A DNA stretch of 64,000 bases, taken from positions 512,001 to 576,000 of the forward strand of contig CAVQSP010000014.1 in NCBI GenBank assembly GCA_963715985.1, in the 5' to 3' direction. Shown piece by piece: positions 12,974-53,269 of this stretch. The DNA comes from an uncultured Thermoleophilia bacterium (GTDB taxonomy: Bacteria > Actinomycetota > Thermoleophilia > UBA2241). Under the pieces are notes generated by a model, which saw nothing but the letters and a program-made list of their open reading frames with translations, did not search any database and was not told where the DNA came from. The first letter of the stretch is position 1; every line of letters begins with the position of its first letter. The position numbers and the translations under genes were made by a program.

Positions 12974-15584
12974 TCAGACCTGCCGTGCGTCCGGCAGCCG
13001 CTCCACCTCGATGAGGCAGGTGTTGCACGCCATGCCCGGCGAGGTGGGCGTGATGAAGCGCTTGGACGTGAGCATGTTGATGCAGCCGGCGAGGTCGGGG
13101 GAGTGGCCCGGCTCGCCGGACGGCCGGTAGTCGGCGCACGACTCGTAGGAGTGCGCCGTGCCCGGCCGCACGCGCTCGGTGACGTACGCGGCGAGGATCA
13201 CCTCGCCGCGCTCGTTGAAGGCGCGCACGAGGTCGCCGTGGGCGACGCCGCGCGCCTCCGCGTCCTCCGTGCTGAGGCGGATGATCCAGTAGCGCCGGCC
13301 GTCGTCCTTGAGCAGGCGGTGCTCCTCGATGTCGTCGGCCCACCCGTCTTTGCCGTCCCCGTGCGTGTGGAAGCTGAAGCGCGGGTGGGGCGAGAGGAGC
13401 TGCAGCGGGAAGCGCTCTGTGAGGTGCGTGGTGTGGTGCCCCTCCCAGCTCTCGATGTACTGCGGGCCCATGGCGGGGCGCTCCTCGTCCACCACGTCGC
13501 CGGAGGCGTAGAAGCGGGTGAGGCTGGAGCTGACGAACTCGATCTTGCCGGTGGTGGTCTGCAGGCCCTTGCCGCCGACCGTGTCCCACGGCGGCGGGCC
13601 CCAGTCGGGCGTGTCCCGCTTGCGGTCCTCGGCGAACCAGCGCAGCGCCGGCGTGTACGGCTTGTCCTCGGGCACGGGCACCACGTAGTAGCCCTTCTCG
13701 CGGAAGTCGTCCCACGAGATGTGCTGCGGCATGTCGCTGGCGTCGAAGATGCGCTTGACCCAGTCCAGCTCGGTCATGCCGCCGTCGGTGTAGATGTCGC
13801 CGATGCCCATCTTCGCCAGCGAGCAGGGCGAAGATCTCGTAGTCGGACCTGGACTCGCCGAGCGGCTCCACGCACTTCTGCTGCAGGACGATGATGCGGT
13901 GGTTCACCTGCTCGAACTTGTGCGTGCCGTAGCCGGAGGCGTGCGCCCAGTCACCGATGTCCCAGCGCTCGAAGTTGGTGCAGGCGGGCAGCACGATGTC
14001 GGCGAAGCGCGTCTCGCCCTCCATCCAGATGGACTGGTTCACGACGAAGGGGATCTCGCCCTCGCGGTAGGCGGTCACGTAGCGGTTGGTCTCGGTCATG
14101 GTGCCGAAGAAGGAACCACCGTACCGGTAGTACATCTCCACGTGCGGGTAGCCCGGCGCCGGGTACTTGTACTCGGGGAACTGCGCCTCGATGGACGAGC
14201 CGCAGAAGCCTTTGCCGTTCCAGCGCAGCTCTTCGTGCCGCATGGCCTCCGGGATGCGCAGGCGCGGCACGGTCTGCCCCTCGGTGGAGTGCTGCGGGTT
14301 GCTGATGAAGCCGCCGTCCGGCCACATGCGGCTGGCCAGCTTCTTGCCCGCGGCCGTGCCGGCGACGTCGCCGGAGATGCCGCCCTCGGCGTAGCCGGGG
14401 AAGAAGAAGTCGGCGTCGAACGGCACGCCGCTGGTGGTGGACCAGAGGTTGCTGCCCGGCTTGCCGAGGCCCTGCATGGCGACGAGGGCGATCATGGCGC
14501 GCGCCCACTCGTTGCCGCTGGAGGCGCGGCAGGCGCCGCCCCAGCCGCCCTGGCCGCCCGCGGCGAGCATGGTCTTCCTGCGGCCCCAGCGGCGGGCCAG
14601 GGCGCGGATCTGGCGGGCGGGGACGCCCGACTCCTCCTCGGCCCAGGCGGGCGTCTTGGGCAGCCCGTCGCTCTCGCCGAGCACGTACGCCTTCCACTCG
14701 TCGAACCCGTGCGTGTGCGTGGCCACGTACTCCGTGTCGTAGGTGCCCTCGGTGAGCCAGGTGTGGGCGATGGCGAGGGCCAGCGCCACGTCGGTGCCCA
14801 GGCGCGGCGCCAGCCACTTGCCGCCTATCAGGGCCGCCGTGTGGTTGTGGTAGGGGTCGATGAACACCATCTCCACGCCGAGCTGCTTGAGCCAGTCGCG
14901 GCGGGAGGTGCTCTCGAAGGAGGCGTAGACGCCGCCGGTGGTCTCGGGGTCCGATGACCAGAACACCATCATCTCGGTGTGCTTGAGCGCGTCCTCGAGG
15001 AGGTCGTACTGCTCGGGGATGCCGAGGCGGTGGCTGAAGCCCCACATGTGGGCGCCGCCCCACTGCCAGCCCTCCCAGCTGTCCGGGTTGTGCTCGCCGT
15101 AGGTGTAACCGACCAGGTTCATGAAGCGGTTGTAGGCGCTGAAGCGGTAGCCGACGTTGCCCCACAGGTGGTGCGAGCCGGGGGTCGTGAGCATGCCCGC
15201 CGGACCGACCTCGCGCTTGATGCGCACGATCTCGGCGGCCACGATGTCGAGGGCCTCGTCCCAGCTGATGGGCTCGTAGCCGGACTCGCCGCGCTTGTGC
15301 GTGTTGCGCGCCCCGTCGGGGTCGAAGTCGACCCGCTTGAGGGGCGTGAGGATGCGCGAGGGCGAGTAGATGGTGGCGCGGTGCGCCACGGTCCACGGGG
15401 AGAGCGTGGTCTTGCGCGGGGGCGAGAACGAGCGCCCGCGCGCCTCGATCTTCCACGAGGGCGCATCGTCGTCGTCGAGCTGCAGAGGGATGATGCGCTG
15501 GATGCGTCCGCCGGCCACGTCGACGTGGACGGGGCCGCCGGTGGTGAGGCTGGTCAGTCGCCTGACGGGCTGCGTGGCGTGCAT
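12974..15584 (-). CDS. athL: Pyrogallol-phloroglucinol transhydroxylase alpha-subunit homolog (Mo-bisPGD); frameshift near 13816
   Basis: 'TGGPVHVDV', 'SHHLWGNVGYR', Ser-ligand motif 'NPDSWEGW', 'FPGYAEGGISGD', 'GLQTTTGKIEF', 'SPHPRFSFH'; no Tat signal and no N-terminal FeS motif. Confidence 0.88.
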
Positions 15585-15804
15585 GCTCGGGTCACCGTCC
15601 GTGTGGGTTGGATGCAGTCGGAGTCTACCGGAACGGGCGGTCCGTTGCACGGTACGGAGCGCAGCCCCAGCCTCGGGAGAGCCGCCCGCGCGGGCCCGTG
15701 TCAGGGCTGTGACCGCGGCCGCGAAGAGGCCGGCCCGCGGCGCCTGAGACGGCGGCGCCGCGGGCCGGCCGGGGGTCAGCCGTGACGATCGCGCAGGCCG
15801 GCGC

Positions 15805-18012
15805 TCAGGCCTTTCCGTAGGTCGGCACGGTGCCGTAGTTCTCGCGTGTGGAACACCTCGTCCTGCATGTCCTCGTCGGCGGCCTTGTAGACCTTGCAGA
15901 TGAGGCAGGTCATGTCGGGCGACCCGTACATGGGGTCGAGGTGGTCGTTGCTGGTCAGCACGTTGGGGTTCGAGATGAACACACCGTGGTACCCCTTGGC
16001 CGGCTCCTCCGGATAGAACCAGTTGGCGGTGCACATGATCATGTCCTTCTTGATGCCCGCGAAGGCGTGCAGCTTCTGGCGGATGCGGCCGCGCTGCGTC
16101 TCGATCCAGATGATGTCGCCGTCCTCCACACCGTACTTCTCGCAGGTCTCCGGGTGCATCTGGCACTGCGGGAACTCCATGTAGCTGCGCAGCCAGGGGA
16201 TGTTGCGGTACTGGCCGAGGAAGTAGAAGGGCTGGCGGAAGCCGGTGCTCAGGAGGAGCGGGTACTCCTTGAACAGCTCCGGCGTGCTGACCGGGCTCTC
16301 GCCCGGCTCGCGGAACACCGGCAGCGGGTCGTACCCGAGCGACTCGAGGTGGTTCGACTTGAACTCGAACTTCTTGCTCGGGGTGGGGAACCCGCCACCC
16401 TCGTGCCAGTAGTCGGTCTTGTACTTGTAGTACACCTGGTCGGGCCCCATGCAGCCGCTGATGAGGTTCTTGCTGAAGTCCTTCCAGGTCATGGTGCCGT
16501 TCATGCCCTTGCGGACCTGGTAGTCGAGCAGCGAGGGGACGTCCTCGAACCACTTGTCGGGCACGACGCGCTTGCCGACCTCGTTGAAGATCCAGGCGTC
16601 GGCCTTGCGCCTCGCCGGGCGGGTCGATGACCTTGTTGTGCGCCTCGATCATGAACCGCGGGTGCATGTCGTACACGTCGTCGAGCTCGAGCCAGTGGGC
16701 GGCCGGCAGCACGATGTCGGCCGCCTCCGCCATCGGCCCCATGAAGAGGTCGGTGTGCGACATGAACTCGACCTTCTCGATGGCCGCGACGACCTCTTTG
16801 GTGTTGGCCATGTGCACGATCTGCTGCCCGCCGACGCTGAACCAGACCTTGACCGGGCTCTTGCCGTCGTTGATGGCCTTGACCATCGTGTCGGGATTGC
16901 ACGTGCGGGCGGCGCCCATCTTGTACGTGTCGCCGCCGATGATCTTGCTCGCCATCTCCGGGGTGATCGGCAGCTCCAGGAAGAAGTCCTCGATGAGGCC
17001 GGTCTCCGGCAGGACCCAGGTGATCATGCTGCCCGGCCGCTCGATGTTGCCCGCCAAGCCCATGAGGCAGGTGATGGCGCGCAGCGTGTGGCCGCAGTTG
17101 GCCTGGCGCTCGAGGGAGCTGCCGACCTGGATGCAGCCCGGCGTGTCGACGGCCCACATCTCGGCTGCCGTCGTCACGTGCTCCTTGGGGATCCAGCAGA
17201 TGTCGGAGACCTTCTCCGGAGTGAAGTCCTTGACGCGCTCGCGGAGCTCGTCGAACCCGAACGTCCAGTCCTCGACGAACTCCTTGTCCCAGAGCTCCTG
17301 CTCGATGATGTGGTTCATCATCCCCATGGCCAGGGCGCAGTCGGTGCCCACGCGCGGCTGGATCCAGAGCGAGGCCCGCGAGGCATACGCCGTGGCTCGC
17401 GGGTCGATGATGATGAGGTTCTTGCAGTAGTCGAGCGAGTTGATGAACCAGTAGGCCATCTCGGAGTCGGCGCTGCTGATCTCCAGCTGCTTGGCCCACA
17501 TGATCTGGGTCTTGGGGAACTCGCCGCCCCAACCGTGGTAGTCGCAGTACAGGCGGCCGTAGCCCGTCACGAGGCCGTAGAGCCCGAGCCGCGGGCTGTG
17601 ACACACGTAGCCGGGCGTGATGGCGTTGCCTGTGCCGAGCGAGCGCGCCATCTTCATGGTGTAGCGGTTATAGCCGCGGCCCGGTGCCCTGTGAGATGGC
17701 GATGGTGTGCGGGCCCGGGTCGGCGATCGCCGCCTTCATCTTCTCGGCGATCGTGTCGAGCGCCTCGTCCCAGCTGATGCGCTCCCACTTGCCCTCGCCC
17801 TTCTTGCCGACCTGCTTCATCGGGTGCTTGATGCGATACGGGTTGTCGATGTGCTGGATGCTCGAGAGGCCCTTGGAGCACATCGTGCCGTTGGTGGTCG
17901 AGTCCGGATTGCCTTGGATGTGGACGATCACGCCGTCTTCGACGGTGACGATGACGCCGCAGCCGCCGTGACAGCTCTTGCACGTCGTGAGGATCTGCTT
18001 GCGCTCAGCCAT
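15805..18012 (-). CDS. Mo/W-bisPGD oxidoreductase catalytic subunit, acetylene hydratase / catechol dehydroxylase-related; frameshifts near 17680, 16610 and 15840
   Basis: FS0 motif 'CKSCHGGC...C', probable Cys ligand in 'GYVC', 'ADIVLPAAHWLE', 'TPSKKFEF', 'GESPVSTPELFKEYPL'; no Tat signal. Confidence 0.82.
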
Positions 18013-18046
18013 TGTCTCCCTTTTCCGACAGGCCCGGAGGCCGGCC

Positions 18047-19024
18047 TCACGCGACCTTTGGAAGGACGGACCGGTAGATCCCGACCTTGAGGACGGAGTA
18101 CTTCAGGGCGAACGCCCCGATCGTGTGGCAGACGATCGCCACGACCAGCAGCGACTCGGTGCTTGTCGTCTCGCCCATGAACAGCGTCGCGAACGAGATG
18201 ACCAGCGGAGTGACGATGCCGAGGATCACGAGCAGGATCCAGAACACCCAGGCGGTGCTTCCCTTGATCAGGTCCTGCGCGGCGAGCTCGGCGGTCGAGT
18301 GCTTGCGGTAGGCGCGGACCAGGTAGCCGGCGATCAGCAGGGCGTTGACGATGAGGAGGATGCGGCTCCAGGACTCCAGTGTGTCGATGGCCACGTCCTT
18401 GCCTGTCATCAGGCTCACGCCCATGGTGAGGGCCAGACCGTCGGCGATGCCCATGATGACGAACACGATGGGCAGCAGGCCGGTGTTCCAGAAGGGGAGG
18501 CTCTTGCAGTAGCTCATGGCGAAGCCGCAGTACACGCCGGTGAGGACGATGAACACGCCGGCGACGATGCCGACGATCCAGGCGAGCACCGTGACGACGT
18601 CTGCAGCCGAGGCGCTGAGGTCGACCCAGTGCAGCAGGTACCACAGGACGATCTGCAGGAAGCCGGTGGCCGCGAACACGATCGAGAAGAACATCCCCCT
18701 GGCGAACCACGAGGTCTTCCAGGCCTTCGTGAACGGGGGGATCGCGCGCCAGAAGTTGCGCTTTCTGCCGAGGTACAGGAAGTGCAGCGGCAGCTTGAAG
18801 AGCATGATCAGCGCCCAGCCGAGCACGGTGGCCCACCAGGCGCCGGTGGTGATCCCCCAGATCCCGGCGATCAGGCCCACGAGGTACGTGCCCATGCCGA
18901 GCGCGGAGAAGACCTCGGCGAGCCACACGAGGATGCCCTTGCCGGAGATCCACTCCTTCTGGCGCATGGGCTTGACCATCCACTCGTGGGTGGTGATCCA
19001 CTGGCGGCGGGTCTGCGCCTTCAT
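18047..19024 (-). CDS. nrfD: NrfD/PsrC-family membrane anchor (quinone-interacting)
   Basis: About 8 hydrophobic segments; 'RQKEW', 'HFLYLGR', 'TSWFARG', 'YCGFAM...PFWN'. Confidence 0.82.
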   Translation of the reverse strand: MKAQTRRQWITTHEWMVKPMRQKEWISGKGILVWLAEVFSALGMGTYLVGLIAGIWGITTGAWWATVLGWALIMLFKLPLHFLYLGRKRNFWRAIPPFTKAWKTSWFARGMFFSIVFAATGFLQIVLWYLLHWVDLSASAADVVTVLAWIVGIVAGVFIVLTGVYCGFAMSYCKSLPFWNTGLLPIVFVIMGIADGLALTMGVSLMTGKDVAIDTLESWSRILLIVNALLIAGYLVRAYRKHSTAELAAQDLIKGSTAWVFWILLVILGIVTPLVISFATLFMGETTSTESLLVVAIVCHTIGAFALKYSVLKVGIYRSVLPKVA

Positions 19025-19812
19025 GACGTCACCTCCGCCTCATCCTTGTCGTGGCCGTGGATGCGCCGGTACGCGTCGCGGTCGACGGTGCTCAGGTGCT
19101 GGATGTGACTGCCCGTCTGCGCCTCACGCGGCGCGCTGTTGGACGGCGCACCGCCCAGCCTGTAGTCGATGTAGTACACCGAGGGATCGGTGGCGTACTC
19201 CGTGCGCAGCTGAAAGCCGATGCGGTCGCGGATGAGCCGCGAGACGTTGCTGTCCGGGTCGTCGAGATCGCCGAAGGTGAGAGCCCGCGCCTGGCACGTG
19301 TTGACGCACGCGGGGGTGGCGTCGCGGTCGATGCCGGGCCACAGCCCCTTGGACATCCCGTCGTCGATGCGCTCCGCGCAGAAGTTGCACTTCTCGGTGG
19401 TCCCCCGCTGGTGCGGGTAGAGCTCCTTGCCCTTCTTCTCGAAGCGGGTCTTCTCGTAGCCGGGGAAGTAGCCCGGGTCCTTGTCCTTGGAGAGGAAGGT
19501 GCGGTTCTGGTATGGGCAGGCGATCACGCAGTACCGGCAGCCGATGCATTTGTTCGAGTCGATGACGACGATGCCGTCCTCGCGCTGGTGCGACGCCTCC
19601 GTGGGGCACACGTGCACGCACGGGGCATCGGCACACTGGTTGCAGCGCACCGGGTACGTGCTGACGTCCACGGCGCCGTCCTCGTCCACCTCATAGGCGA
19701 TGAGCTTGACCCAGGTGATGTGAAGCGGCAGGAAGTGCTCGATCCTGCAGGCGGCGACGCAGGCGTGGCAGCGCATGCACTTCGCCAGGTTGATGACCAT
19801 TCCCCATCTCAT
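19021..19812 (-). CDS. NrfC/DmsB-type four-cluster Fe-S subunit
   Basis: CMRCHACVAAC, CNQCADAPCVHVCP, CIGCRYCVIACPY, KCNFC...PACVNTC. Confidence 0.9.
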   Translation of the reverse strand: MRWGMVINLAKCMRCHACVAACRIEHFLPLHITWVKLIAYEVDEDGAVDVSTYPVRCNQCADAPCVHVCPTEASHQREDGIVVIDSNKCIGCRYCVIACPYQNRTFLSKDKDPGYFPGYEKTRFEKKGKELYPHQRGTTEKCNFCAERIDDGMSKGLWPGIDRDATPACVNTCQARALTFGDLDDPDSNVSRLIRDRIGFQLRTEYATDPSVYYIDYRLGGAPSNSAPREAQTGSHIQHLSTVDRDAYRRIHGHDKDEAEVTS

Positions 19813-19876
19813 CGGCGTTCTCCTGTTCGCCGGCGGACTGGTCCCGCGTCAGGGGGCGCGACGGCGACGCGGTCTC

Positions 19877-20693
19877 CTATCGCGCAAGGGGGATGTCTCC
19901 CAGGCTCACGTCGTTCTCGGTGCTGACTTCGCGGCTGGCGCGGCGCGAACCCCTCCGCGCTGATGGTGAGCGCGTACGTGCCCTCCTCGAGCCCGGTGAT
20001 CCAGAAGTCGCCGAACGCGTCGGTCGCGACGGTGACGGCCTCGCCGCCCCCGGCGGGGGTCGCGGTGCACACGGCGCCGGTCACGACCTCCTTCTCGACC
20101 GGGTCGTACACCGTGCCGGCGATGAACCTCTTCGGCACGTTGAGGTAGTAGACGCGTGGCTTCGTGCCGAGCTCCGGCTTCCTGACCTCGGCCTTGGCGA
20201 TGAGCTCGGCGAACTCGCTCTCCTCGCCGAACTTGAGCGCTGCGGTCGGGCACGAGTCGACGCAGCGCGGCACGTCCCACTCACCGCTGTCCAGCAGGTG
20301 CGCACAGCCGGTGCACTTCTGCGCCAGGTTGAGGTCGTCGTTGAAGTAGATGGAGCCGTACGGGCAGGAGTCGACGCAGGCCTTGCAGCCGGTGCAGAGG
20401 TCGGTGTCGATGATGACGAGGCCGTCGTCGCGCTTGTACATCGCGCCTTCCACCTTGCAGGACGCCATGCAGGGCGCGTCGTCGCAGTGGTTGCAGTGGT
20501 TGGCGACGTAGTGCATGCGCACCTGGGGCACCTGGCCGCAGATGTACTCGTCCACGCGCATCCAGAACTGGCCGCTGTCCGGCTGGGGCTTGGCGATGGG
20601 AGCCCAGTCGTTGCCGACGTGCTCGTCCTTGCAGGCGAACTGGCAGCCGAAGCAGCCGTTGCAGACGCCGACGTCTACGATGAATGCCTTCAT
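19877..20693 (-). CDS. Transhydroxylase beta-subunit-like Fe-S protein with C-terminal beta-sandwich; frameshift near 19945
   Basis: 'CNGCFGCQFACKDEHVGNDW...QPDSGQFWM', 'KCTGCAHLLD...PRCVDSCPT', 'TDAFGDFW'. Confidence 0.85.
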
Positions 20694-20695
20694 GG

Positions 20696-23327: not shown

Positions 23328-23376
23328 CTCGATCGCTGTCCTTTCGCCATCGTCGAAGGGGCCCTGAGGAGGCACA

Positions 23377-24234: not shown

Positions 24235-24288
24235 GCCATCCCCCTTGTCGGACCCCGATGCCTCTTGCCTGGCGCCGTTGCACAGGAG

Positions 24289-24336
24289 TACGATATTCGC
24301 GTTGCTATCAGACGATATCAGCGTTTTGACGATATG
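24289..24336. promoter_or_regulatory. Divergent control region with three ACGATAT half-sites
   Basis: tACGATATt, gACGATATc and gACGATATg between iclR and the third Mo enzyme; same half-site as 1193. Confidence 0.45.
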
Positions 24337-24418
24337 CAAGGTGTCTGGTCGTTCGGCGTCGCCCGGCGGGGGTCATGGCCGCGGCAGCGCTCCACGGGAG
24401 CCGGTGGGAGGTCGCCCA

Positions 24419-26947: not shown

Positions 26948-26951
26948 TCAG

Positions 26952-40010: not shown

Positions 40011-40114
40011 TGCCTGCGCGGCGGCTGGGCAAGTCCGGCAGACTCCCGCCGCCCGCTCTTTCTGACGCAGGGTGGCGCAAGCCTTCCCGCGGCGCCGGCG
40101 CGCGTGCGAGGCCG

Positions 40115-41048: not shown

Positions 41049-41222
41049 CGCGATCTCCCTCCGGCGGCGGCTTCTGCGTGACCCGGGTCACGGCGACATT
41101 GACAGGACGGACCGCGTAACTCTAGCATACGAACCAGTGATGTATAGTCCTATAGCAGAGGTCGCTGCTCTGGTGGATGGACCGTCTGCGTGGATGCTCG
41201 AGCGGGGAGGTCCGGGTCTGCC

Positions 41223-43188: not shown

Positions 43189-43193
43189 GCCGA

Positions 43194-44058: not shown

Positions 44059-44088
44059 CCGTCGCAGCCAGAGGGGAGAGGTGACCGC

Positions 44089-44871: not shown

Positions 44872-44932
44872 GCGCGCCGTTCGTGAGCCGCTCGCGTCCC
44901 GTTCCAGCCATCGCCACCCGGAGGTCACGCTG

Positions 44933-45772
44933 ATGGCCGTCAGGACACTCACGCCCGAAGAAGAGGCCAAGCCGTACGCCAAGTACTACCACCGCCCGGT
45001 CACGCCGCCGGACGCGGACATGATCGCGCTGATCCAGCCCGACGTGCAGATCGACCCGGCCCTGGCGCTGCCGCCGGAGCGCATCAGCGACCTGCTCGAC
45101 CCCGGCTACCACGAGGTCGAGACCGGCTGGTGCATCATGCCCAACGGCAGCGGCTACCTGGCCGTGCACAACCGCATGCCCGGCGTGACCGTCGAGATGC
45201 TCGACTGGTGGTTCTGGTGGCACTCCATGGCCAGCGTGCGCTACGGCCTCTGGTACCCGCCGGGCCACTACGGCATCTCGATCAGCAAGAAGTCGCGCGC
45301 CAAGCTCAGTGACCCGAGCGTGCCGGCCAAGGAGAAGATCTACGGCCGCACCGACCACGTGGTCGAGGACATCGGCACGGGCGCGGAGGACATCTACATC
45401 TGCTTCTGCGCCCCCGAGGAGATGGGCTTCGACATGAGCCGATTCCACGCGCCGAACGTCGCGGCCGTGTACGGCGGCTACGGCTTCGACCAGCCGCAGG
45501 GCGCCAAGCCGAGCGACATCCGGGCGCCCGCCATCATGTGTCACTTCATCCGTGAGCTTCCGGACGGGGACGGCATCGAGTTCCGCTCGCGCTTCTGGAT
45601 GGGCTACAAGCTCATCGAGGGGCAGCCCGTGCTCGCCATCCCGCCCGGTGAGTCGGTGCCGGCCGATGTGCCCTACGGCCTCGCCGATCACAACGTCAGC
45701 GAGTACTGCAACCTCAAGTCGCTGCTGCCGGAGATCTGGGCCGAGTTCAAGGACGCCGACCCGGCGCTGTGA
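44933..45772 (+). CDS. Phloretin hydrolase / PhlG family, copy 2
   Basis: 'MPGVTVEMLDWWFWWH', 'WYPPGH', 'VVEDIG', 'SRFWMGY', 'HNVSEY'. Confidence 0.88.
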   Translation: MAVRTLTPEEEAKPYAKYYHRPVTPPDADMIALIQPDVQIDPALALPPERISDLLDPGYHEVETGWCIMPNGSGYLAVHNRMPGVTVEMLDWWFWWHSMASVRYGLWYPPGHYGISISKKSRAKLSDPSVPAKEKIYGRTDHVVEDIGTGAEDIYICFCAPEEMGFDMSRFHAPNVAAVYGGYGFDQPQGAKPSDIRAPAIMCHFIRELPDGDGIEFRSRFWMGYKLIEGQPVLAIPPGESVPADVPYGLADHNVSEYCNLKSLLPEIWAEFKDADPAL

Positions 45773-45794
45773 AGCCGGGCAGGGAGGAACCCCT

Positions 45795-46589
45795 ATGCCA
45801 ATGAAGCTGATGGCGGCGTCACGCCGCCGGCCCGGGCTGACCAGGGCCGAGTACTTCCGCTACATCGAGCACTACCACGGCACCGTGGCGCGCCTCGAGC
45901 GCTTCAAGATCGAGAAGTACATCCAGAACCACGTGATCGACGGCGCGTTCGGCGTGATCTCCGACGCGGGCGGCCACAAGAACAAGGTCGCCGACAGGGA
46001 CGCCGTCGTCGAGCTCCACTTCGACAGCTTCCGCGACATGCTGGCCACCCTCGAGCCCGAGGGCGTGACCGTGTCGCGCGCCAACCAGGACGGCCGTTTC
46101 TTCGCCGACGAGCCGACCAACATCATCGTGATGGCGGAAGAGACCGAGCTGCCCGTCGCCAAGCCCATGCCGGACTTCAACCCCGGGCTCGGCGAGCCGG
46201 GCAGGGGTGCGCTCAAGGTGATGCAGTACATCATGCGCCGGCCCGAGGTCTTCCCCCAGGACTTCCACCGGCTGTGGCGCCGCGCCCACGACGAGGCTCT
46301 GGCGGCGAGCCCCTACGCCAACGACATGTTCCGCAAGATCGTCGTGAGCAAGCGCTCGCGCGTGAACGACAACGACGCCGCGGCCCGCGCGCACTTCAAG
46401 ATGGTCGACCCGCCGGTGTACGACCTCGTGGTGTCGTTCGTCCTCGACAGCATCGAGCAGGCCGGCGCCTTCCGGCAGTACTTCGACGCCATCACCAGCA
46501 GCCCGCTGGTGTTCGCCGACTGGTCGGAGTCGTTCTTCCTCTACGTGAGGCCGGTGCGGATCATCGACGACGCGCCGCCGAAGGAGTAG
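45795..46589 (+). CDS. Two-domain EthD protein
   Basis: 'RRRPGLTRAEYFRYIEHYHG...KYIQNH...DAVVELHFDS' plus a second degenerate domain; GGGAGG RBS. Confidence 0.78.
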   Translation: MPMKLMAASRRRPGLTRAEYFRYIEHYHGTVARLERFKIEKYIQNHVIDGAFGVISDAGGHKNKVADRDAVVELHFDSFRDMLATLEPEGVTVSRANQDGRFFADEPTNIIVMAEETELPVAKPMPDFNPGLGEPGRGALKVMQYIMRRPEVFPQDFHRLWRRAHDEALAASPYANDMFRKIVVSKRSRVNDNDAAARAHFKMVDPPVYDLVVSFVLDSIEQAGAFRQYFDAITSSPLVFADWSESFFLYVRPVRIIDDAPPKE

Positions 46590-46593
46590 TGCC

Positions 46594-47502
46594 ATGCCGG
46601 ACATGACCAAGCCTGAATGGGCGGCCCAGAAGACCTACGACGAGAACCGGGCGTTCAGCAAGACCAAGGCCACCCGTCCGCCGCTCACGCCCGAGGAAGA
46701 GAAGCGCCCGTTCGCCAAGTACTACTACGACGAGATCCCGCAGCCGGATCCCGTGCACTACGCGATCATGGACGAGCCGATGGACCCGGCCGACGCGTTC
46801 TACCCGGAGGACATCAGCCGCCTCCTCGACGTGCCGGCGCTCGAGGCGGGGGTGGAGATCGGATGGTGCAACCTGCCCAATGGGGCCGGCTACATCGCCA
46901 ACCGGATCCACTACCCGGAGTTCACCGCCGACATGGTCGACTGGTGGTTCGCGTGGCACCCGCTCGAGGACCTGCGGTACCGCATCTGGTACCCGCCGCA
47001 GCACGCCGGCATCATGCTGAGCCCCATCGACCGTGCTCGCATCCTCGATGACTCCATCCCCAACCGTGAGAAGAACTGGGGCGTCGTCCACAACGTGACT
47101 GAGAACTGCGACAACGGCTACGAGAACATCGACATCGCCTTCCGCTCGCCGGCCGACGCGGGCTTCGACATGGAGAAGTTCGACAAGGTGGCGGCGACCA
47201 TGGCGGGTGGCATGGGCTGGGCCGTGACGGTCGACAAGACCGACGAGTCCATCACCGCGCCGGCGCTCATGGTCCACATGTTCTACGACGCTCCGGAGGG
47301 AGGGCTGATCCACCGCACGCGCTTCTGGATGGGCTACCGCTTCAACGAGGAGGACAAGCCCGAGCTGTGCCTGCCGCCTGGCGTGAGCGTGCCGGTCGAG
47401 GCCGTCCAGGGCCTGGCGCGGCACAACGTCAAGGAGTACACGCGGTGGCGCGAGTTCCTGCCGAGGATCTACGCGGAGCTGGGCCCGGGGATGTACTGCT
47501 AG
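46594..47502 (+). CDS. Phloretin hydrolase / PhlG family, copy 3
   Basis: 'MVDWWFAWHPLEDLRYRIWYPPQH', 'VTEN', 'TRFWMGY', 'HNVKEY'. Confidence 0.88.
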   Translation: MPDMTKPEWAAQKTYDENRAFSKTKATRPPLTPEEEKRPFAKYYYDEIPQPDPVHYAIMDEPMDPADAFYPEDISRLLDVPALEAGVEIGWCNLPNGAGYIANRIHYPEFTADMVDWWFAWHPLEDLRYRIWYPPQHAGIMLSPIDRARILDDSIPNREKNWGVVHNVTENCDNGYENIDIAFRSPADAGFDMEKFDKVAATMAGGMGWAVTVDKTDESITAPALMVHMFYDAPEGGLIHRTRFWMGYRFNEEDKPELCLPPGVSVPVEAVQGLARHNVKEYTRWREFLPRIYAELGPGMYC

Positions 47503-47614
47503 GGGTATCCCGTCGGGCATCGACGATTGAGTTGACCGCGTGAGGGCGGGGGCCGGGGCCGGCGTGCAGGACGTGGCCGCCCGGCCCGTGGCAAACCACG
47601 GCGAGCCGGGCATG

Positions 47615-48532
47615 CTAGGGTGTCAGCCAGCCGTGGGTGAGGTCCGGCGGCCGCTTCTCGGCACGTTCCGGCAGCGGCTCGCTCACGGGCCAGATGAGCT
47701 CCGTGGCGAAGTCCGCGGGGTCGGCCGTGTCCCGCTCGTCGCGGACGAAGCGCATCCGCAGCCGGCCGCGGAGGCCGCGGCCGCTGTCCGCGAGCCATTC
47801 GAGCTGTCTGGCGTAGGCGAAGCGGTAGCCGTCCTCGTAGAGACCTGAGAAGACGCTTCGCGCGAAGCGGCCGCCCTCGAGCTCGACGAGGTCCGCGGCT
47901 GGTGTGGTGGTCGCCTCTCCGGCCACGGGGAGGCAGAGCTCGTAGCGGAGCACGGTCTCGTCCCCGCCCGCGAGACCTTTGTCCGTCGGGTCGAGCAGTA
48001 CCACGTGTTCTCTCCCCGTCGGGGTGAGGCCGGACTCGGTGGCTCTATCGGCGAGCACGGCGGCGAGATCGATGTAGGACTCGTGGAACTCCGAGCGGGC
48101 CATCGTCCCCGACCAGCGCAGGCAGCGCTCCGGCGCGAGGTCGATGAGTTCGACGGCGGGAGCCGCGCGGAACATGGCGTCGAGCTCGTCGATCCTGCTC
48201 AAGAGCCGCAACGCCGCATCCAGGCGGGCCTGCTCCTGCTCGAGCCGCTGCTTCTGCTGCGTGAGGGTCTCTTCGAGACGATCCGTCGCAGCCGCGTCGA
48301 TGTACAGGCGCATCTCGTTCAGGGGTACGTCGAGCCGCCTGAGAAGGCGGATCATCTCGGCTGCCCGGATCGAGTGGACGTCGTAGGATCGGTATCCCGT
48401 CGCCTCGTCGACGTGCGCGGGCAGCAGGAGCCCGCGATCGGCGTACAAGCGAAGGGCACGATGGCTCAGCCCGGTCATGCGCGAGAAGATGCCGATCGGC
48501 ATCAGTCGCTCATCACCCCGTGGCGACCGCAT
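47615..48532 (-). CDS. MerR family regulator with GyrI-like effector domain (BmrR type)
   Basis: 'IGIFSRMTGLSHRALRLYADRGLLLPAHVDEATGYRSY', C-terminal 'TELIWPV'. Confidence 0.88.
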   Translation of the reverse strand: MRSPRGDERLMPIGIFSRMTGLSHRALRLYADRGLLLPAHVDEATGYRSYDVHSIRAAEMIRLLRRLDVPLNEMRLYIDAAATDRLEETLTQQKQRLEQEQARLDAALRLLSRIDELDAMFRAAPAVELIDLAPERCLRWSGTMARSEFHESYIDLAAVLADRATESGLTPTGREHVVLLDPTDKGLAGGDETVLRYELCLPVAGEATTTPAADLVELEGGRFARSVFSGLYEDGYRFAYARQLEWLADSGRGLRGRLRMRFVRDERDTADPADFATELIWPVSEPLPERAEKRPPDLTHGWLTP

Positions 48533-48628
48533 CTCCCGTCGTCCTTCCTGGTCCATGACGCCACTCTAGTCTCGGACGCGGAAGGTGGCCATCTTGCCGT
48601 CCGTCACCGCCCGCACGCGCGTCGCTCG

Positions 48629-48659
48629 TTGACTCTGACGCGGGTCAGTGTTCGAGACT
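48629..48659 (+). promoter_or_regulatory. MerR-type promoter TTGACT-N19-GAGACT with internal dyad
   Basis: ACTCTGAC-GCGG-GTCAGTGT dyad overlapping -35 and the spacer; divergent from the merR-family gene. Confidence 0.55.
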
Positions 48660-48732
48660 CTCTGAGCCGCGTCGCGCGCCGGCGCCGAGCACGCACTGTC
48701 TATCGCTACGGCCACTGTTCCAAGGGAGGCTG

Positions 48733-50248
48733 ATGAGTGTGAACGACATCGTCAATGGGCTCGCCGCGCTCGTCGGCCGCGACTACGTCGCGGCCGACCC
48801 GGCGAGCCTCCAGGAGTACGCGGGCGACGAGAGCTTCGTCCCGCGGCTGACGCCGTGGGCCGTGGCCCGGCCGGGCTCGGCCCAGGAAGTGCAGAAGGTC
48901 GTCGCCTGGGCCAACGAGACGGCGACGCCGCTCGTGCCGGTCAGCTCCGGCGGGCCGCACTTCCACGGCGACACGGTGCCCAGCGTGACGGGCGCCGTGA
49001 TGCTCGACCTGCGGCGGCATGGACAGGATCCTGCGTATCGACCGGCGCAACCGCATGGCGGTCATCGAGCCGGGCGTCACGTATCCCCAGCTGCAGGCCG
49101 CCCTGGCCGAGCAGGGCATGCGCGTGACGCCGCCGCTGCTGCCGCGGGCGAACAAGTCGGTCGTCGCGAGTCTGCTCGAGCGCCAGCCGACGCTCATCCC
49201 GCGCTACAACTTCCACCTGCCCGAGCCGCTGCGCAGCTGCGGCGTGGTGTGGGGAAACGGCGAGACCATGTTCACCGGCGAGGCCGGCAGCGGCCCCGAG
49301 TCGCTGGAGGCGCAGTGGCAGGCCGGCGGCGTGCAGGCCGACCCCAAGGGCCCGGCGCAGACCGACTTCTTTCGCCTGCTCACGGGCGCGCAGGGGACGA
49401 TGGGCGTCGTCACGTGGGCGGCGGTCAAGTGCGAGCTGCTGCCCGCCGCCCACGAGTTCGCGTTCGTGACGGCCGCCGACCTCGACGACCTGGTCGACCT
49501 CACCTACCGGCTCGACCGCATCCGGCTCGGCGATGAGGTGTTCATCGTCAACGACGCCTACCTGGAGCGGCTGCTTGCCTCGCAGCATGGGGGCAAGGTC
49601 GATCCCGACGAGCTGCCGGCGTGGACGCTCGTCCTTGGGTTCGGCGGGCGCGAGCACTTCGCCGCGGAGCGGGTCGCCGTCCAGAAGAAGGACGCGGCAT
49701 CGCTGGCCGGGGAGTTCGGCCTGACGCTGCAGCAGTCGATCCCCGGTGCGCTGACCGGTGACATCGCCGCCGCGATCGGCGCCTGCTGCGAGACGCCATG
49801 GAAGCTGGCGGCGGAGGGCGCCTGCGCCGACGTGTTCTTCGTGACCACTCTCGAGGAGGCGCCCGCGTTCGTCGAGATCGCGCACATCGTGGCCGACGGG
49901 TACGGGTACGCCGCGGAGGACGTCGGCGTGTACATCCAGCCCCAGCACCAGGGCGTGACGCACCACGTCGAGTTCAGCCTGCCCTACGACGGCTCGGACG
50001 CGGCCACCCGGGAGGACATGAAGGGCCTGTCCGACGACCTCGCCGCCAATCTCATGGCCGCCGGCGCCTACTTCAGCCGGCCGTACGGCTCGTGGGCTCA
50101 GCCCGTCTACAACCGCGATGCCGCCTCGCGCGACGCCCTGCGCAAGGTCAAGGCGATCTTCGACCCGGCCGGGAGTCATGAACCCCGGCAAGCTGTGCTT
50201 CGGGGCGCCGGATCGCGCCCGCGCGCGCTCGTCGAAAAGGAGGCCTGA
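48733..50248 (+). CDS. FAD-binding oxidoreductase (VAO/PCMH/GlcD superfamily); frameshifts near 49018 and 50172
   Basis: 'ARPGSAQEVQKVV', 'VPVSSG', 'DLRRMDRILRID', 'IEPGVT', 'GAQGTMGVVT', 'KAIFDP...NPGK'. Confidence 0.82.
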
Positions 50249-50249
50249 C

Positions 50250-51570
50250 ATGGCCCTCACCGACTATCGCGCCGACGCCATGCGCTGCACGCGCTGCAGC
50301 TACTGCAAGTGGATCCCCTTCGACCTCGTGAAGAGCCACCGCTTCGCCAAGGGCTGCCCATCGATCGAAGCCGGCAAGTTCCACGCCTACTCGGCCGGCG
50401 GCCGGCTCGTCACCATGCGCTCGCCTCCTCGACGGCCGCAGCGAGGTCACCGACCAGGTCGTCGACATCGCCTTCCGCTGCCAGCTCTGCGGCAACTGCG
50501 ACGTGGCCTGCAAGATGTGCCGCTACGACATGGAGCCCATCCTCGCGCTGCGCGAGCTGCGCGCGCACCTGGTCGAGATGGACCGGGTGCCGGAGTCGTA
50601 CCGGCCGCTCATCGAGCGCACCCGCGCCGGCCTCGCCGGCAAGGGCAAGACCCCGGCCGAGCGCAACGCCTGGGCTGAAGGGCTGGGCCTCGTGGACCCG
50701 ACCGTCGAGCCCGTCGACGTCGTCTTCTTCGCGGGCTGCAAGTACTCCCTCGAGGAGTCGCTGCGGGAGACCGTGCGCACGCAGGTGCGCGTGCTGCAGG
50801 CCGCCGGCCTCAGCGTGGGCATCATGCCCGAGGCCGGCTGCTGCGGCGGCCTCGCCGACAAGATGGGCTATCGTGACGAGGCCGCCAGGCCGGCACGAAG
50901 ATGCTCGAGCAGTGGGCCGCCGCCGGTGTGAAGACGGTGGTCACGCCGTGCGCCGACTGCCGGCACACGTTCACGCGCGCCTACCCGAAGTACGAGGGCG
51001 CGTCGGAGGACATGCCGGAGATCCTGCACACCGTCGAGTGCGTCGACAGGCTCGTGAAGGACGGGCGGCTCGAGCTCACCGCGCCCGTCCCGCTCACCGT
51101 CACCTACCACGACCCCTGCAACCTCGGTCGTCAGGGCGAGCCCTACACGCAGTGGGAAGGGGTCGAGAAGAAGATCTACGGCCAGGCGGTCGTCTACGAC
51201 CCGCCGCGACCGCGCCACAACGGCGCCAACGGCGTCTATGACGCGCCGCGCGACGTGCTCGCCGCCATCCCCGGCGTGGAGCTCGTCGAGATGGAGCGCA
51301 GCCGCGAGGCCGCCTGGTGCTGCGGCGCCGGCGGCGCCTGCCGCGAGGCGTTCCCCGAGTACTCGGCCGCGACGGCCGCAGAGCGCGTGGAGGAGGCGGC
51401 GTCGACCGGTGCTGAGGCGCTCGTCACCGCCTGCTCGCGCTGCGAGCTCAACTTCGCGGAGGCCGTGGCCGCCGACACCGCGTCGGGCGGCCCCGGCGCC
51501 GATCTGCAGGTCCACGACGTGCTGGAGCTCGTCGCGCTCTCCGCCGGCATCAGGGAAGGAGGCCTCATGA
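50250..51570 (+). CDS. GlcF/HdrD-like Fe-S protein with CCG domains; frameshifts near 50425, 50893 and probably 51553
   Basis: CTRCSYC, CQLCGNCDVAC, 'GCCGG', 'VTYHDPCNLGR', 'CCGAGG', 'TACSRC'. Confidence 0.82.
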
Positions 51571-53269
51571 GCCCGAGCTACGCCAAGCCCACCACGCCGG
51601 CCGAGACGGCCGCCGCCTCGGCGCAGATCACCGACGAGGCCTACCGCGCCCTCGAGGACATCGTCGGCGCCGACAACGTCTCGCGTGACGCCGCCATCCT
51701 CGACACGTACGCGTTCCAGTGGCTCGCCGAGCTGGTGCGCCCCGACCAGAGCCACTACATGCCGCGTCCGGCGGCCGTCGTGCTGCCCGGATCGACCGAA
51801 GAGGTCCAGGCGATCGTCCGCCTGGCCAACAAGTACGGCCTGAAGGTGAAGCCGCACGGGACCGGCTGGTACCACTGGTCCGGTCCCATCAAGGACTCCG
51901 ACGCGACGCTGCAGCTCGACCTGCGCCGCATGGACGCCATCGTCGAGATCGACGAGCAGAACATGTACGCGGTCGTCGAGCCGTACGTGATCGCCGCGCA
52001 GCTGCAGGCGGAGATCCTCCCGCTGGGCCTCAACCTCAACATCCCCGGCGTGGGCTGCTCCAGCTCGATCGTCGCCAGCGCCTGCGCTTACCACGGCGCC
52101 GGTCCGGACACCTACTACATGGGCGGCAACGCCGAGAACGTGCTCGGCATGGAGTGGGTCACGCCCGAGGGCGAGATCGTCCGCACCGGCTCGCTCGGCT
52201 AGCGGCGACGGCTGGTTCTGCAGCGAGGGCCCCGGCCCGTCCGTGCGCGGCATCTGCCGGGGCACGCTCGGCAGCCGCGGCGGCCTTGGCGTGTACACGA
52301 AGTGCGCGGTCAAGCTCGCCCCGCACTTCGGCCAGACCGAGTGGAACGTCGAGGGCACGTTGCCCGCGTACCGCCTGCCCGTGCACGAGAACCTGCGCGT
52401 CTACACGCTCGCGGTCCCGGACTGGGACGCCTGGGCGGACATCTACTACAGGATCTACGACAACGAGATCGGCTACATCTTCCACCGCCAGTTCAACCTC
52501 GCCGGCGCCGACCTCGGCCCCGCGTTCTGGCTCATGTACAACGACGCATCCAAGGTCGCTCTCGGACGTGCCTGAGCTGGTCGCCGATCCGGAGGTCGCC
52601 GCGCTCACCGAGGAGATGCGCATCAGCTTCCAGCTCATCCTCGCAGGGCGCTCCAAGGACGACATCGAGCTGCAGGACAAGATCCTCGACGCCATCCTCG
52701 AGGAGGTCGGCGGCTGGAAGGTCGAGCGCTTCTGCGAGCAGGATATGGCCGAGTTCACCAACGTCTACCTGCAGCGGCTCGGCCACAAGCACGTCAACTT
52801 CGTCTGGGCCGGCGGCTACATCGGCAGCTGGATGCAGTTCGGCACGCCGGACTGGGTCAAGGGCTACGTGCCCACGGCCATCGACGGCCTTGCGCGGGAC
52901 GCCAAGGACGGTCTGCTCGTGCAGTGCGGGGGAGACGCGATGATGGGCTCCGGCAGCGGCATCCCGCTGGGCGGCGCCACCGGCCTCGAGCAGTTCGTCA
53001 GCTACGACCCGGACGACCAGGCCTCGACCAAGGCCGGCATCAAGCACATGGAGGACGCGGTCAAGGATGCCGCCTCCATCAGCTACCCGCCGGGCAAGGA
53101 GTTCCTCTACCTGCAGATCGGCTGGACCGACGAGCAGATCTGGGACGCGCTCGCGCACGCCAAGCAGCCGCAGGTGTTCCACTACCAGCGGCAGATCAAG
53201 GAAGCATTCGACCCCAACGACGTCGGCGACAGGATGTATCCCACGCTGCCGGCCGACCGGGGAGAGTGA
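51567..53269 (+). CDS. Second FAD-binding oxidoreductase (PCMH-like); frameshifts near 52199 and 52555
   Basis: 'PAAVVLPGSTEEVQAIVRLANKY', 'LDLRRMD', 'GMEWVTPEGEIVRTGSLG...GPGPS', 'IKEAFDPN'. Confidence 0.82.

Follow-up and report, generated by a model that had tools for sequence, protein, structure and literature searches.

A gene island predicted to break down flavonoids and related polyphenols without oxygen in an uncultured wetland Thermoleophilia bacterium

An island of genes at positions 12974–53269 of a 64,000-nucleotide stretch of DNA from an uncultured Thermoleophilia bacterium (the window, G000:C14:512001-576000) is best read, in our moderately confident view, as five separately regulated modules that would together convert flavanones, flavanonols and trihydroxybenzenes to phloroglucinol and aryl acids without oxygen. 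Its gene content, the homology and catalytic motifs of the encoded proteins, the gene order across species and the co-location with a phloroglucinol-pathway gene set are direct observations. The host is an uncultured, wetland Thermoleophilia-type actinobacterium, and its genome assembly (G000) comprises 4.35 Mb in 22 contigs, with a completeness of 88.8% and a contamination of 7.29%. The GC content of the window is 0.65–0.72 per 2 kb and rises to about 0.9 at third codon positions. Gene classes were assigned by Pfam scans of frame-selected open reading frames (ORFs), with NCBIfam as a second profile library; for several genes that are broken in the window, homology was scored instead on the intact ortholog in G013, one of five relatives (G011, G013, G015, G024 and G027) considered here, the last of which belongs to another family of the class. 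No Rfam family reached its gathering score within the window.

The C-ring operon

The region 39960–48556 holds a tightly spaced plus-strand operon, the C-ring operon, between two minus-strand regulators. It encodes a bacterial chalcone isomerase (CHI) homologue, which we have termed CHI1 (44089–44871; Pfam-scanned ORF 44059–44868). An initial annotation of the window had proposed such a protein, and the assignment holds: CHI1 scores 37.1 bits against Chalcone_N (PF18232; cut-off 25) and is the only match to that family in G000. It aligns with the Eubacterium ramulus CHI structures 3zph and 4d06 (E = 6.4e-11 for 3zph, 45 bits) over three collinear segments covering the two ferredoxin-like domains, with residues 2–69, 89–156 and 185–235 matching 3zph 8–76, 133–200 and 212–255, respectively. 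In the E. ramulus enzyme the catalytic His33 is polarised through Asp36 (PMC9694015; papers cited by PMC number are represented here by excerpts, and our statements about them hold for those excerpts). CHI1 His26 aligns with this histidine and Glu29 with Asp36, both positions being nearly invariant in 20 homologues, and His73 of the E. ramulus enzyme, which is not catalytic there, is Thr in CHI1. CHI1 would convert a flavanone to the chalcone, or a flavanonol to an auronol.

On either side of CHI1 lie genes for predicted C–C hydrolases of the phloretin hydrolase family: PhlG1 (43190–44058; Pfam-scanned ORF 43231–44055), PhlG2 (44933–45772; ORF 44807–45769) and PhlG3 (46594–47502; ORF 46549–47499), which score 213, 240 and 213 bits against DAPG_hydrolase (PF18089; cut-off 22.7 bits). 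These are the three matches to the family in the whole of G000, where the initial annotation had counted four phloretin-hydrolase-type genes; the one possible fourth is a divergent Bet v1-fold look-alike, described below. The residues aligned with His123, Glu154, His259 and Glu263 (H/E/HxxxE) of the M. abscessus phloretin hydrolase 5xey, which we take to be the zinc ligands, are kept in all three proteins. PhlG2 matches 5xey with E = 6e-38 as against 6e-28 for PhlG (3hwp), and by sequence the paralogues are closer to the phloretin hydrolase than to PhlG. Their mutual identity is 44–50%, and another family has a separate ortholog for each of two of them (65% and 78%), which points to old paralogues with different specificities. 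By hydrolysing the aryl–ketone bond, PhlG1–3 would release phloroglucinol together with an aryl-C3 acid.

Upstream of the hydrolases, the operon opens with a 2x[4Fe-4S] ferredoxin (41190–41477; Pfam Fer4; Pfam-scanned ORF 41148–41474), the stop codon of which overlaps by 4 nucleotides the start of an FrdA/AprA-like flavoprotein (41474–43185; Pfam FAD_binding_2 and Succ_DH_flav_C; ORF 41390–43200). The flavoprotein–ferredoxin pair that had been noted in the locus is therefore present in these families. The best solved relatives of the flavoprotein are FrdA (E = 6e-26) and the alpha subunit of APS/PAPS reductase, and every NCBIfam match is below its cut-off. The reductase of the known pathway, Fcr, is of the enoate-reductase type and presumably belongs to the Oxidored_FMN family, for which the 88.8% complete genome G000 gives 0 matches and which is found in 13 of 14 control genomes. 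The lack of an Oxidored_FMN gene in G000 makes the ferredoxin–flavoprotein pair a candidate chalcone/flavanone reductase, which would reduce the enone to the dihydrochalcone in place of the absent Fcr. A CHI locus of gut Eubacteriaceae (L102), inspected for a long reductase gene beside CHI, has no ORF of at least 600 residues within 5 kb.

Extra bases occur in the flavoprotein gene near 42825 and near 43170, the second masking its stop codon, and in PhlG1 near 43388; the start and ribosome-binding site of PhlG1 were placed from an alignment of the junction between the two genes. A flavoprotein–PhlG1 fusion, as would be read from an 853-residue ORF of G013 (FAD_binding_2, Succ_DH_flav_C and DAPG_hydrolase) and from the missing stop between the genes in the window, was rejected. 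In seven of nine aligned junctions a TGA stop is present, together with a GAGAGGAG motif resembling a ribosome site and, a few bases on, an ATG; upstream of these the window has one extra base and G013 another, so the fusion is an artefact.

Between PhlG2 and PhlG3 the operon encodes an EthD-domain protein (EthD1, 45795–46589; 50.3 bits; Pfam-scanned ORF 45438–46586) with a tandem ferredoxin-like alpha+beta barrel, which may act as an accessory cofactor-free isomerase or tautomerase. An AlphaFold2 model of an ortholog (mean predicted local distance difference test score (pLDDT) 75, predicted template modelling score (pTM) 0.80) retrieves coproheme decarboxylase, chlorite dismutase and ABM-type proteins in Foldseek. 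We also considered EthD1 as a cryptic CHI and rejected this, since hhalign gives 3% and the E. ramulus CHI (3zph_C) appears at Foldseek rank 47, which reflects a common fold class and no specific relation. The two regulators at the edges are a MerR–TetR fusion (39960–41048, minus strand; Pfam MerR_1 and TetR_N), divergent from the operon and with a frame switch near 40384–40431, and a MerR protein with a GyrI-like, ligand-binding domain (47615–48556, minus strand; Pfam).

Side-chain modules, molybdenum enzymes and the upstream phloroglucinol set

The aryl-C3 acid released by the hydrolases would be passed to a FAD/FeS triad on the plus strand (48733–53269). Its first member is a FAD_binding_4 flavoprotein of the GlcD/VAO superfamily (48733–50248; Pfam matches on two frames, with switches near 49014 and 50175), the G013 ortholog of which is intact at 556 residues. 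The second is a GlcF/HdrD-like Fe–S subunit with a CCG domain (50250–51560, ends approximate; frame switches near 50423 and 50886), whose G013 and G027 orthologs contain Fer4_8 and two CCG domains, and the third is another FAD_binding_4 flavoprotein (51560–53269, start approximate; Pfam), in which one base too many stands at 52203 and the frame switches near 52553. The layout of the proposed GlcD/F-like triad was thus recovered; the GlcD identity was not, as the score against the glcD NCBIfam equivalog is 59–68 bits (cut-off 568) and the triad has the superfamily alone in common with GlcDEF. For the FAD domain of the second flavoprotein's ortholog, the nearest solved structures are of the VAO/eugenol-oxidase/PCMH type (E = 4e-14 to 1e-7), followed by D-lactate dehydrogenase and glycolate oxidase (E = 2e-7 to 1e-6), all of them weak matches. 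The triad would oxidise the aryl-C3 acid, either from aryl-lactate to arylpyruvate or by benzylic dehydrogenation of 4-hydroxyphenylpropionate. In published chemistry, taxifolin taken through the FCR/PHY route yields 3,4-dihydroxyphenyllactate and phloroglucinol, and the logic of the triad and of the module described next would continue from that product.

This next module begins with a GntR/FCD regulator (27863–28675, minus strand; Pfam), followed on the plus strand by an ADP-forming acyl-CoA synthetase (ACD; 28699–30900, ends approximate), IorA, the alpha subunit of an indolepyruvate/arylpyruvate:ferredoxin oxidoreductase (30900–32758, start approximate), and IorB (32755–33381; Pfam-scanned ORF 32731–33378). 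ACD and IorAB had been named beforehand, and Pfam bears them out. ACD matches CoA_binding_2, Succ_CoA_lig and Ligase_CoA_2 across frame switches near 29415–29462 and 30681, and its intact G013 ortholog also has ATP-grasp_5. IorA matches POR_N, TPP_enzyme_C and Fer4, and its G013 ortholog scores 642.9 bits against NCBIfam IOR_alpha, just below the cut-off of 650.9; IorB matches POR and the NCBIfam indolepyruvate oxidoreductase beta model (252 bits, cut-off 237). A single ORF of 1116 residues that joins ACD to IorA (29408–32755) was rejected as one gene, there being two genes in G013. IorAB would convert an arylpyruvate to the arylacetyl-CoA, from which ACD would release arylacetate and form ATP.

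Directly after IorB comes a gene for a 207-residue protein (33446–34100, plus strand; extra base at about 33730) that has no Pfam or NCBIfam match and carries PhlG-like His/Glu motifs, with LWHP..H and H-x3-E invariant among its homologues. The model of an ortholog (pLDDT 69.5, pTM 0.69) has as its top Foldseek match the M. abscessus phloretin hydrolase 5xey_D (E = 6.3e-5, TM 0.52/0.44). By VIA-align it matches PhlG 3hwp with Z = 10.1 over 168 residues and many Bet v1/PR-10 proteins with Z of 10–11.5, and an hhalign comparison with PhlG2 is not significant (probability 9%). As modelled, the protein has a Bet v1 fold and may be a fourth, minimal PhlG-family hydrolase; it recurs beside CHI-family genes at 14 of 79 loci (defined below) and may supply arylpyruvate by diketone cleavage. 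Another ORF, at 38706–39731, was ruled out as a fourth PhlG (BLASTP against PhlG2, E = 1.3 or worse). The second of the two predicted EthD-domain proteins, both of which are confirmed by Pfam, follows at 34235–35104 (plus strand; 40.8 bits; Pfam-scanned ORF 34187–35101).

It is possible, though doubtful, that the island contains two non-homologous solutions jointly: a ferredoxin-dependent, FrdA/AprA-like enone or C-ring reductase in the place of Fcr, and a route from auronols to phloroglucinol and arylacetate through a module composed of ACD, IorA and IorB, to which relatives add a second CHI paralogue downstream and some of them the minimal Bet v1-fold PhlG-like hydrolase as well. In the latter route, the ring-opened 1,2-diketone of an auronol such as alphitonin would be hydrolysed to give an arylpyruvate, which would then undergo oxidative decarboxylation with a gain of ATP. 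A 2024 preprint, in the part seen here, still calls the conversion of the auronol alphitonin to phloroglucinol and arylacetate hypothesised. The CHI2 paralogue of the relatives is missing from the window, where the ACD–IorAB module is present.

A stretch at 35068–39950 interrupts the modules and has no counterpart at this place in G013 or G015, blastn giving no match of at least 300 bases to either for 35058–40132. It contains an MFS transporter (35068–36209, plus strand), whose MFS_1 domain is the only Pfam match in the stretch, about 2.5 kb of weakly coding sequence without a family match, and a minus-strand ORF for a repeat protein of 340 residues (38703–39725) with three 66-nucleotide repeats spaced 252–260 nucleotides apart. 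These internal repeats and short chance matches are the only repeats in 34000–41500. Read depth over the stretch is lower in four wetland metagenome runs (see below), and it is probably not part of the conserved island. A second pair of ferredoxin and FrdA-like flavoprotein genes lies at 59836–61800 of the window (frame switch near 60577), about 25 kb away from the place that it occupies in G013 and G015, between the 207-residue protein and the second EthD protein.

The left part of the island (12974–27780) encodes three molybdenum enzymes of the transhydroxylase family, as had been claimed, with Pfam PF21423, the AhtL-like first domain, in each. AthL#1 (12974–15640, minus strand, 5' end approximate; Pfam-scanned ORF about 12977–15640; Pfam AhtL-like_1st, Molybdopterin and Molydop_binding) resembles the large subunit of pyrogallol–phloroglucinol transhydroxylase; relatives' ORFs place one frame switch in it near 13806–13816. 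Its G013 ortholog matches the Pelobacter large subunit 4v4c over its full length with 1157 bits. The window frames themselves contain SHHLWGNVGYR, HNPDSWEG and FPGYAEG, and the alignment shows all four motif blocks, with the residues at 4v4c positions 144, 152, 153, 174, 175 and 404 kept. We take His144, Tyr152/Arg153, Asp174-Ser175 and Tyr404 to be active-site residues of the Pelobacter enzyme. By sequence, AthL#1 is near-orthologous to that enzyme. AthL#2 (20696–23370, minus strand, 5' end approximate; Pfam-scanned ORF 20699–23370; Pfam, AhtL_1st domain at 23067–23237; one frame switch near 22894) is divergent: its G013 ortholog scores 421 bits against 4v4c, and AthL#2 keeps the Asp-Ser Mo-ligand motif and neither the His144 nor the Tyr404 region. 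AthL#3 (24224–26947, plus strand; Pfam; Pfam-scanned ORF about 24200–26944) scores 879 bits, with Lys in place of Arg153 and the remaining motif residues kept. Small subunits of the BthL type (Pfam Fer4_11 and CarboxypepD_reg) follow AthL#2 (19809–20693, minus strand) and AthL#3 (26952–27780, plus strand; matches across two frames with a switch near 27358); no small-subunit gene lies directly beside AthL#1, which sits in the AthL#2 operon.

That operon is tightly spaced on the minus strand downstream of an IclR-type regulator (23377–24339, minus strand; Pfam IclR_C and HTH_IclR) and runs from AthL#2 through the BthL-like subunit, an NrfC/DsrO-type 4Fe-4S subunit (19021–19812; Pfam-scanned ORF 19024–19848; Pfam Fer4 families; NCBIfam DsrO 184.8 bits, cut-off 200), an NrfD-type membrane subunit (18047–19024; ORF 18050–19039; Pfam NrfD, E = 3.6e-16) and a molybdenum or tungsten enzyme with an N-terminal Fe4S4 domain (15776–18012; ORF 15779–18102; Pfam Molybdop_Fe4S4, Molybdopterin and Molydop_binding; frame switches at about 16610 and 17700) to AthL#1. 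The G013 ortholog of the Fe4S4-type enzyme has acetylene hydratase (2e7z, 270 bits) as its best solved relative, ahead of FdhF (161 bits), which agrees with the earlier description of an acetylene-hydratase-related enzyme accompanied by NrfCD. The AthL/BthL proteins would shuffle hydroxyl groups to turn pyrogallol-type rings into phloroglucinol, and the acetylene-hydratase-type enzyme with its NrfCD-like partners may couple ring or catechol (de)hydroxylation to the membrane quinone pool.

The Pelobacter transhydroxylase is thus matched here in a full-length large subunit and in BthL-like subunits with Fer4_11 and CarboxypepD_reg-like domains. It differs in that the island has three paralogues and the genome seven, four of them outside the window, in the missing His144 and Tyr404 regions of AthL#2, in the presence of an acetylene-hydratase-type enzyme and NrfCD-like proteins in the AthL#1/AthL#2 operon, and in the lack of a small subunit adjoining AthL#1. 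The catechol dehydroxylases of Eggerthella and Gordonibacter (Dadh, Cadh, Hcdh and Dodh) offer a second likeness, drawn from their description: they come from the same phylum, are bis-molybdopterin guanine dinucleotide enzymes and have the same types of neighbour, a 4Fe-4S protein and a membrane anchor, with acetylene hydratase as their closest characterised relative (PMC7028382). The Eggerthella lenta enzymes have a twin-arginine signal (PMC7028382) and the island enzyme has none, a point in which the smaller Gordonibacter enzymes may differ.

Upstream of the window, a phloroglucinol-pathway-type gene set occupies about 11063–19449 of the preceding 20-kb segment (L107, G000:C14:492001-512000), 0.5–9 kb from the window start. 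It comprises IclR, a 3-hydroxyacyl-CoA-dehydrogenase-like (3HCDH-like) gene, BKACE (which we take to be PF05853), a short-chain dehydrogenase (SDR), a thiolase, two cyclase-family genes (the second frame-broken), a class III CoA transferase and a thiolase-like gene; the SDR, cyclase-family, 3HCDH-like and BKACE genes cluster at 11063–17813 of that segment, 2–9 kb upstream. This set would carry phloroglucinol on to acetyl units.

Several further features surround these modules. The window opens with the last 246 bases of an enoyl-CoA hydratase gene, which comes after the upstream set, and 1562–10078 of the same upstream segment holds a xanthine-dehydrogenase-type Mo enzyme set (Fer2_2, MoCoBD_1/2 and FAD_binding_5) and an aldehyde:ferredoxin oxidoreductase, both frame-split. 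The left flank of the island (1232–12276) encodes MoaF, an iron alcohol dehydrogenase, a class-III aminotransferase and a Liv-type ABC transporter that has two binding proteins; between AthL#1 and the phloroglucinol-type genes, G013 has only the aminotransferase and a permease for amino acids. At 11746–12968, next to the 3' end of AthL#1, are two plus-strand ORFs of 177 and 330 residues in different frames, possibly one broken gene, with a strong coding signal and no Pfam or NCBIfam match. Elsewhere in the genome, a second cluster (L108/L109, G000:C13:465001-500000) contains three AthL-type genes, MobA/MobB, a molybdate-type ABC transporter, three IclR genes, two SDRs, a 3HCDH-like gene, a cyclase, a cupin, BKACE and a Liv-type transporter.

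Gene order, competing explanations and reading frames

The order of these genes is conserved across species, a recurrence that points to more than chance. We compared 79 loci that encode a CHI-family protein, with neighbours counted within 10 kb, and took as close orthologs the 22 loci at which CHI identity is at least 65%. PhlG genes are neighbours at all 22; a MerR–TetR gene is present at 21, EthD at 20, the FAD/FeS triad at 11, the flavoprotein at 10 and an aldehyde:ferredoxin oxidoreductase at nine. The ten loci with at least 90% CHI identity all come from metagenome-assembled genomes (MAGs), nine labelled uncultured Thermoleophilia and one Deltaproteobacteria. A second group of CHI paralogues (about 50% identity) follows ACD–IorA–IorB at seven loci, three of which also carry the 207-residue protein and have AthL–BthL directly upstream. 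Tandem pairs of CHI-family genes without PhlG occur in MAGs labelled Acidobacteriaceae, Gammaproteobacteria, Dehalococcoidales and others (loci L067, L087, L090, L092, L094, L097, L098 and others).

At a larger scale, nearly all of the island recurs in G013, in corresponding modules with 84–90% nucleotide identity, and G027 packs EthD–PhlG–CHI–PhlG, an aldehyde oxidoreductase, the triad, AthL–BthL, a SnoaL-like gene, a third PhlG, a flavoprotein and two cyclases into 23 kb. PhlG/CHI, AthL and phloroglucinol-type cyclase modules lie within about 50 kb in four of the five CHI-positive relatives (G011, G013, G024 and G027), as compared with a span of about 55 kb in G000; BKACE falls in the same span in G011, G013 and G024, and on other contigs in G027. 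Presence/absence profiles of 41 genomes of the genus and class gave Chalcone_N in 10, DAPG_hydrolase in 13 and AhtL above its cut-off in 17, and all 10 Chalcone_N genomes were positive for both others. Co-occurrence of the modules in other genomes, which had been set in advance as a check that could refute the proposal, was therefore found. As for the claim of one joined island, co-location in several species and the adjacent phloroglucinol set support it, and the locus is divided by regulators into five modules rather than forming one operon.

A number of observations weigh against the flavonoid reading, which as a whole rests on sequence. The match of CHI1 to the solved enzyme is distant at its 45 bits. 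PhlG1–3 reach only 100–105 bits against the NCBIfam PhlG equivalog NF047887 (cut-off 600), so that by sequence they are members of the family and not PhlG equivalogs, and their substrate assignment is only predicted. The candidate reductase is a neighbour at fewer than half of the orthologous CHI loci, as counted above. The nearest solved relatives of the triad are ambiguous, and the N-terminus of the acetylene-hydratase-type enzyme, MAERKQILTTCKSCHGGCG, runs directly into its Cys motif with no twin-arginine signal. As the relatives are kin, the synteny and co-occurrence counts are descriptive and are not independent tests. Five regulators imply separate control of the modules, and IorAB/ACD, together with the flanking aminotransferase, Liv-type transporters, amino-acid permease and peptidase, would fit aromatic amino-acid catabolism equally well. 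Finally, the locus had been labelled anaerobic; the chemistry indeed needs no oxygen, but the genome encodes a heme-copper oxidase subunit I (COX1, G000:C13:213624-214964) and a cytochrome bd subunit I (G000:C14:109265-110554), and the organism is thus probably not a strict anaerobe, so that the label fits the chemistry only.

We consider it unlikely, though worth weighing, that the substrates of the PhlG/CHI-like/EthD operon are aryl ketones other than flavonoids, for example acylphloroglucinols made by microbes or plants, phlorotannin fragments or polyketides, in a pathway centred on phloroglucinol and not on flavonoids. The CHI-like and EthD proteins would then be tautomerases that need no cofactor, or cyclase-like helpers. 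The founding member of the hydrolase family, as its NCBIfam name states, hydrolyses 2,4-diacetylphloroglucinol, and PhlG1–3 fall far below that equivalog's cut-off. Moreover, PhlG is a neighbour at only six of the 57 CHI-family loci outside the close orthologs, which leaves 51 of the 79 without it within 10 kb, so that a link to flavonoids does not extend to the CHI-like family at large. In fold, the EthD protein resembles antibiotic/polyketide monooxygenase-like as well as anthrone-oxidase-like proteins, and a SnoaL-like gene stands within the G027 cluster. However, the paralogues are nearer to phloretin hydrolase than to PhlG by the E-values given above, CHI1 retains the catalytic His of the CHI that opens flavanones, a candidate enone reductase is encoded in the same operon, and the downstream modules for aryl-C3 and aryl-C2 acids would have no role in the breakdown of acetyl-phloroglucinols.

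A further explanation, which we judge quite improbable, is that the neighbourhood consists of functionally independent operons, in which IorAB–ACD, along with the transporters, aminotransferase and peptidase of the flanks, would serve aromatic amino-acid fermentation, the Mo enzymes tannin, gallate or other substrates, and only 41190–47502 dihydrochalcones. The genes would then be adjacent because the region is devoted to aromatic catabolism in general, and not because they form a single pathway. It would account for the five different regulators, the amino-acid genes in both flanks, the strain-specific insertion at 35068–39950, and the four AthL-type genes elsewhere, with a second AthL and phloroglucinol cluster on another contig. 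G015 is an exception to the general arrangement in the same sense, as its C-ring module lies on a 683-kb contig with no AthL gene within about 40 kb on either side, the AthL genes being on another contig. Against independence, two families of the class share the co-location of these modules, and a CHI paralogue directly follows ACD–IorAB at the seven loci described above, at three of which the Bet v1-fold protein is also found and AthL–BthL lies directly upstream.

Many of the genes discussed here are broken by frame switches in the window, and we have treated them as intact. When ORFs of the relatives were searched against the window with tblastn, 41 candidate frame switches emerged, some of which are gene boundaries or errors in the relatives; 20 were supported by at least two ORFs, 18 of these inside 12974–53269. 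Among public sequencing runs, 24 contained part of 41190–51189 (shares of 0.06–0.37; 22 wetland, one soil and one sediment), none of them listed as RNA. We aligned contigs of the four best, all wetland metagenomes, to 33400–53300, where they contain near-identical sequence and cover all 30 depth bins; the habitat labels of the other 20 were not used as evidence. Among 12 listed of 24 insertions or deletions, seven fall at six of the predicted break sites: the run contigs are without one base at 33730, 42825 or 42827, 43388, 50175 and 52203, and without two at 37246. The codon-position GC signal is undiminished in every shifted frame, breaks also occur upstream of the window, and relatives assembled in few long contigs carry breaks at different places. 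Taken together, the coding signal in shifted frames, the run contigs without the extra bases and the differing breaks of the relatives indicate that the frameshifts are assembly indels, and the genes are probably intact in nature.

The converse, that the frameshifts are genuine and that the island, in this strain, consists of pseudogenes in decay, strikes us as very improbable. About 18 multiply supported frame switches within 40 kb are many, only nine of the 41 candidate junctions are at homopolymer runs of at least four, hence homopolymers are not a general explanation, and the relatives' CHI2 paralogue is missing here. In addition, eight of the ten multiply supported sites in 33400–53300 have no counterpart among the 12 listed differences, which tells against intact genes. 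The strong coding signal, the six sites at which the four runs are without the extra bases, and the breaks upstream and in relatives argue the other way, and the completeness and contamination of the assembly would fit marker genes that are themselves split.

Relation to known systems and biological meaning

The closest precedents for the C-ring operon are Eubacterium ramulus and Flavonifractor plautii, which use CHI, Fcr and Phy, with Flr upstream. The island likewise has a bacterial-type CHI homologue and Phy-family hydrolases and is predicted to give the same products, phloroglucinol and an aryl-C3 acid (PMC8398226, PMC9694015). It differs in its ferredoxin and FrdA/AprA-like flavoprotein, its three diverged Phy paralogues, its EthD proteins and its host, a high-GC environmental actinobacterium; moreover, the gut study reports, in its available part, co-occurrence of the genes rather than clustering (PMC8398226), whereas the island genes are all clustered. 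The gene set upstream of the window has the same family composition as the phloroglucinol cluster of Clostridium scatologenes (PGR, DPGC, TfD, TAL and thiolase; PMC10470551), namely an SDR, a cyclase (in two copies here), a 3-hydroxyacyl-CoA-dehydrogenase-like protein, BKACE and a thiolase; here it is joined to AthL-type enzymes, a CHI homologue, IorAB–ACD and the FAD/FeS triad. In Mycobacterium, too, DAPG_hydrolase genes adjoin the phloroglucinol cluster (PMC10470551).

The nearest ecological parallel is provided by MAGs of Holophaga and Sporomusales from anoxic wetland soil, which express CHI, FCR, PHY, PGR and IPOR (PMC8084988). The habitat type is the same, as is the idea of C-ring cleavage, phloroglucinol reduction and arylpyruvate oxidation acting together. 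Those MAGs belong to other phyla and use FCR, and the text available describes no single gene island, the term 'gene cluster' being absent from it. The enzymes and the pathway idea are thus already known (PMC8084988, PMC10470551, PMC8398226, PMC7028382) and the lineage is undescribed in this literature. The initial claim that no such combination had been described holds, within the literature searched, for the island itself and not for the pathway concept, which has been published (PMC8084988). In the literature seen, we found no description of the island, of a ferredoxin–flavoprotein replacing Fcr or of flavonoid catabolism in Thermoleophilia; supplementary cluster tables (PMC10470551 Supplementary data 4, CAMPER) may list some of these.

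For enzymes that have yet to be assigned, the island offers several candidates for cloning: three diverged paralogues of phloretin hydrolase, a chalcone/flavanone reductase linked to ferredoxin, a minimal PhlG-like protein and an energy-conserving branch from arylpyruvate to arylacetate. CHI1 and its flanking PhlG genes also make a compact marker set for metagenome surveys.

According to the 'enzyme latch' idea, polyphenols slow down decay where soils are waterlogged, and to our knowledge the oxygen-independent polyphenol degraders recognised so far comprise a few phyla and gut Firmicutes. If our reading of the island is correct, it would add an abundant, uncultured actinobacterial lineage to them. 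Should the more doubtful joint reading also hold, with a ferredoxin-dependent reductase and an auronol route through ACD–IorAB, wetland Thermoleophilia would be dedicated, energy-conserving flavonoid degraders. As predicted from its genes, the island may thus bear on the decay of plant polyphenols in waterlogged soils.

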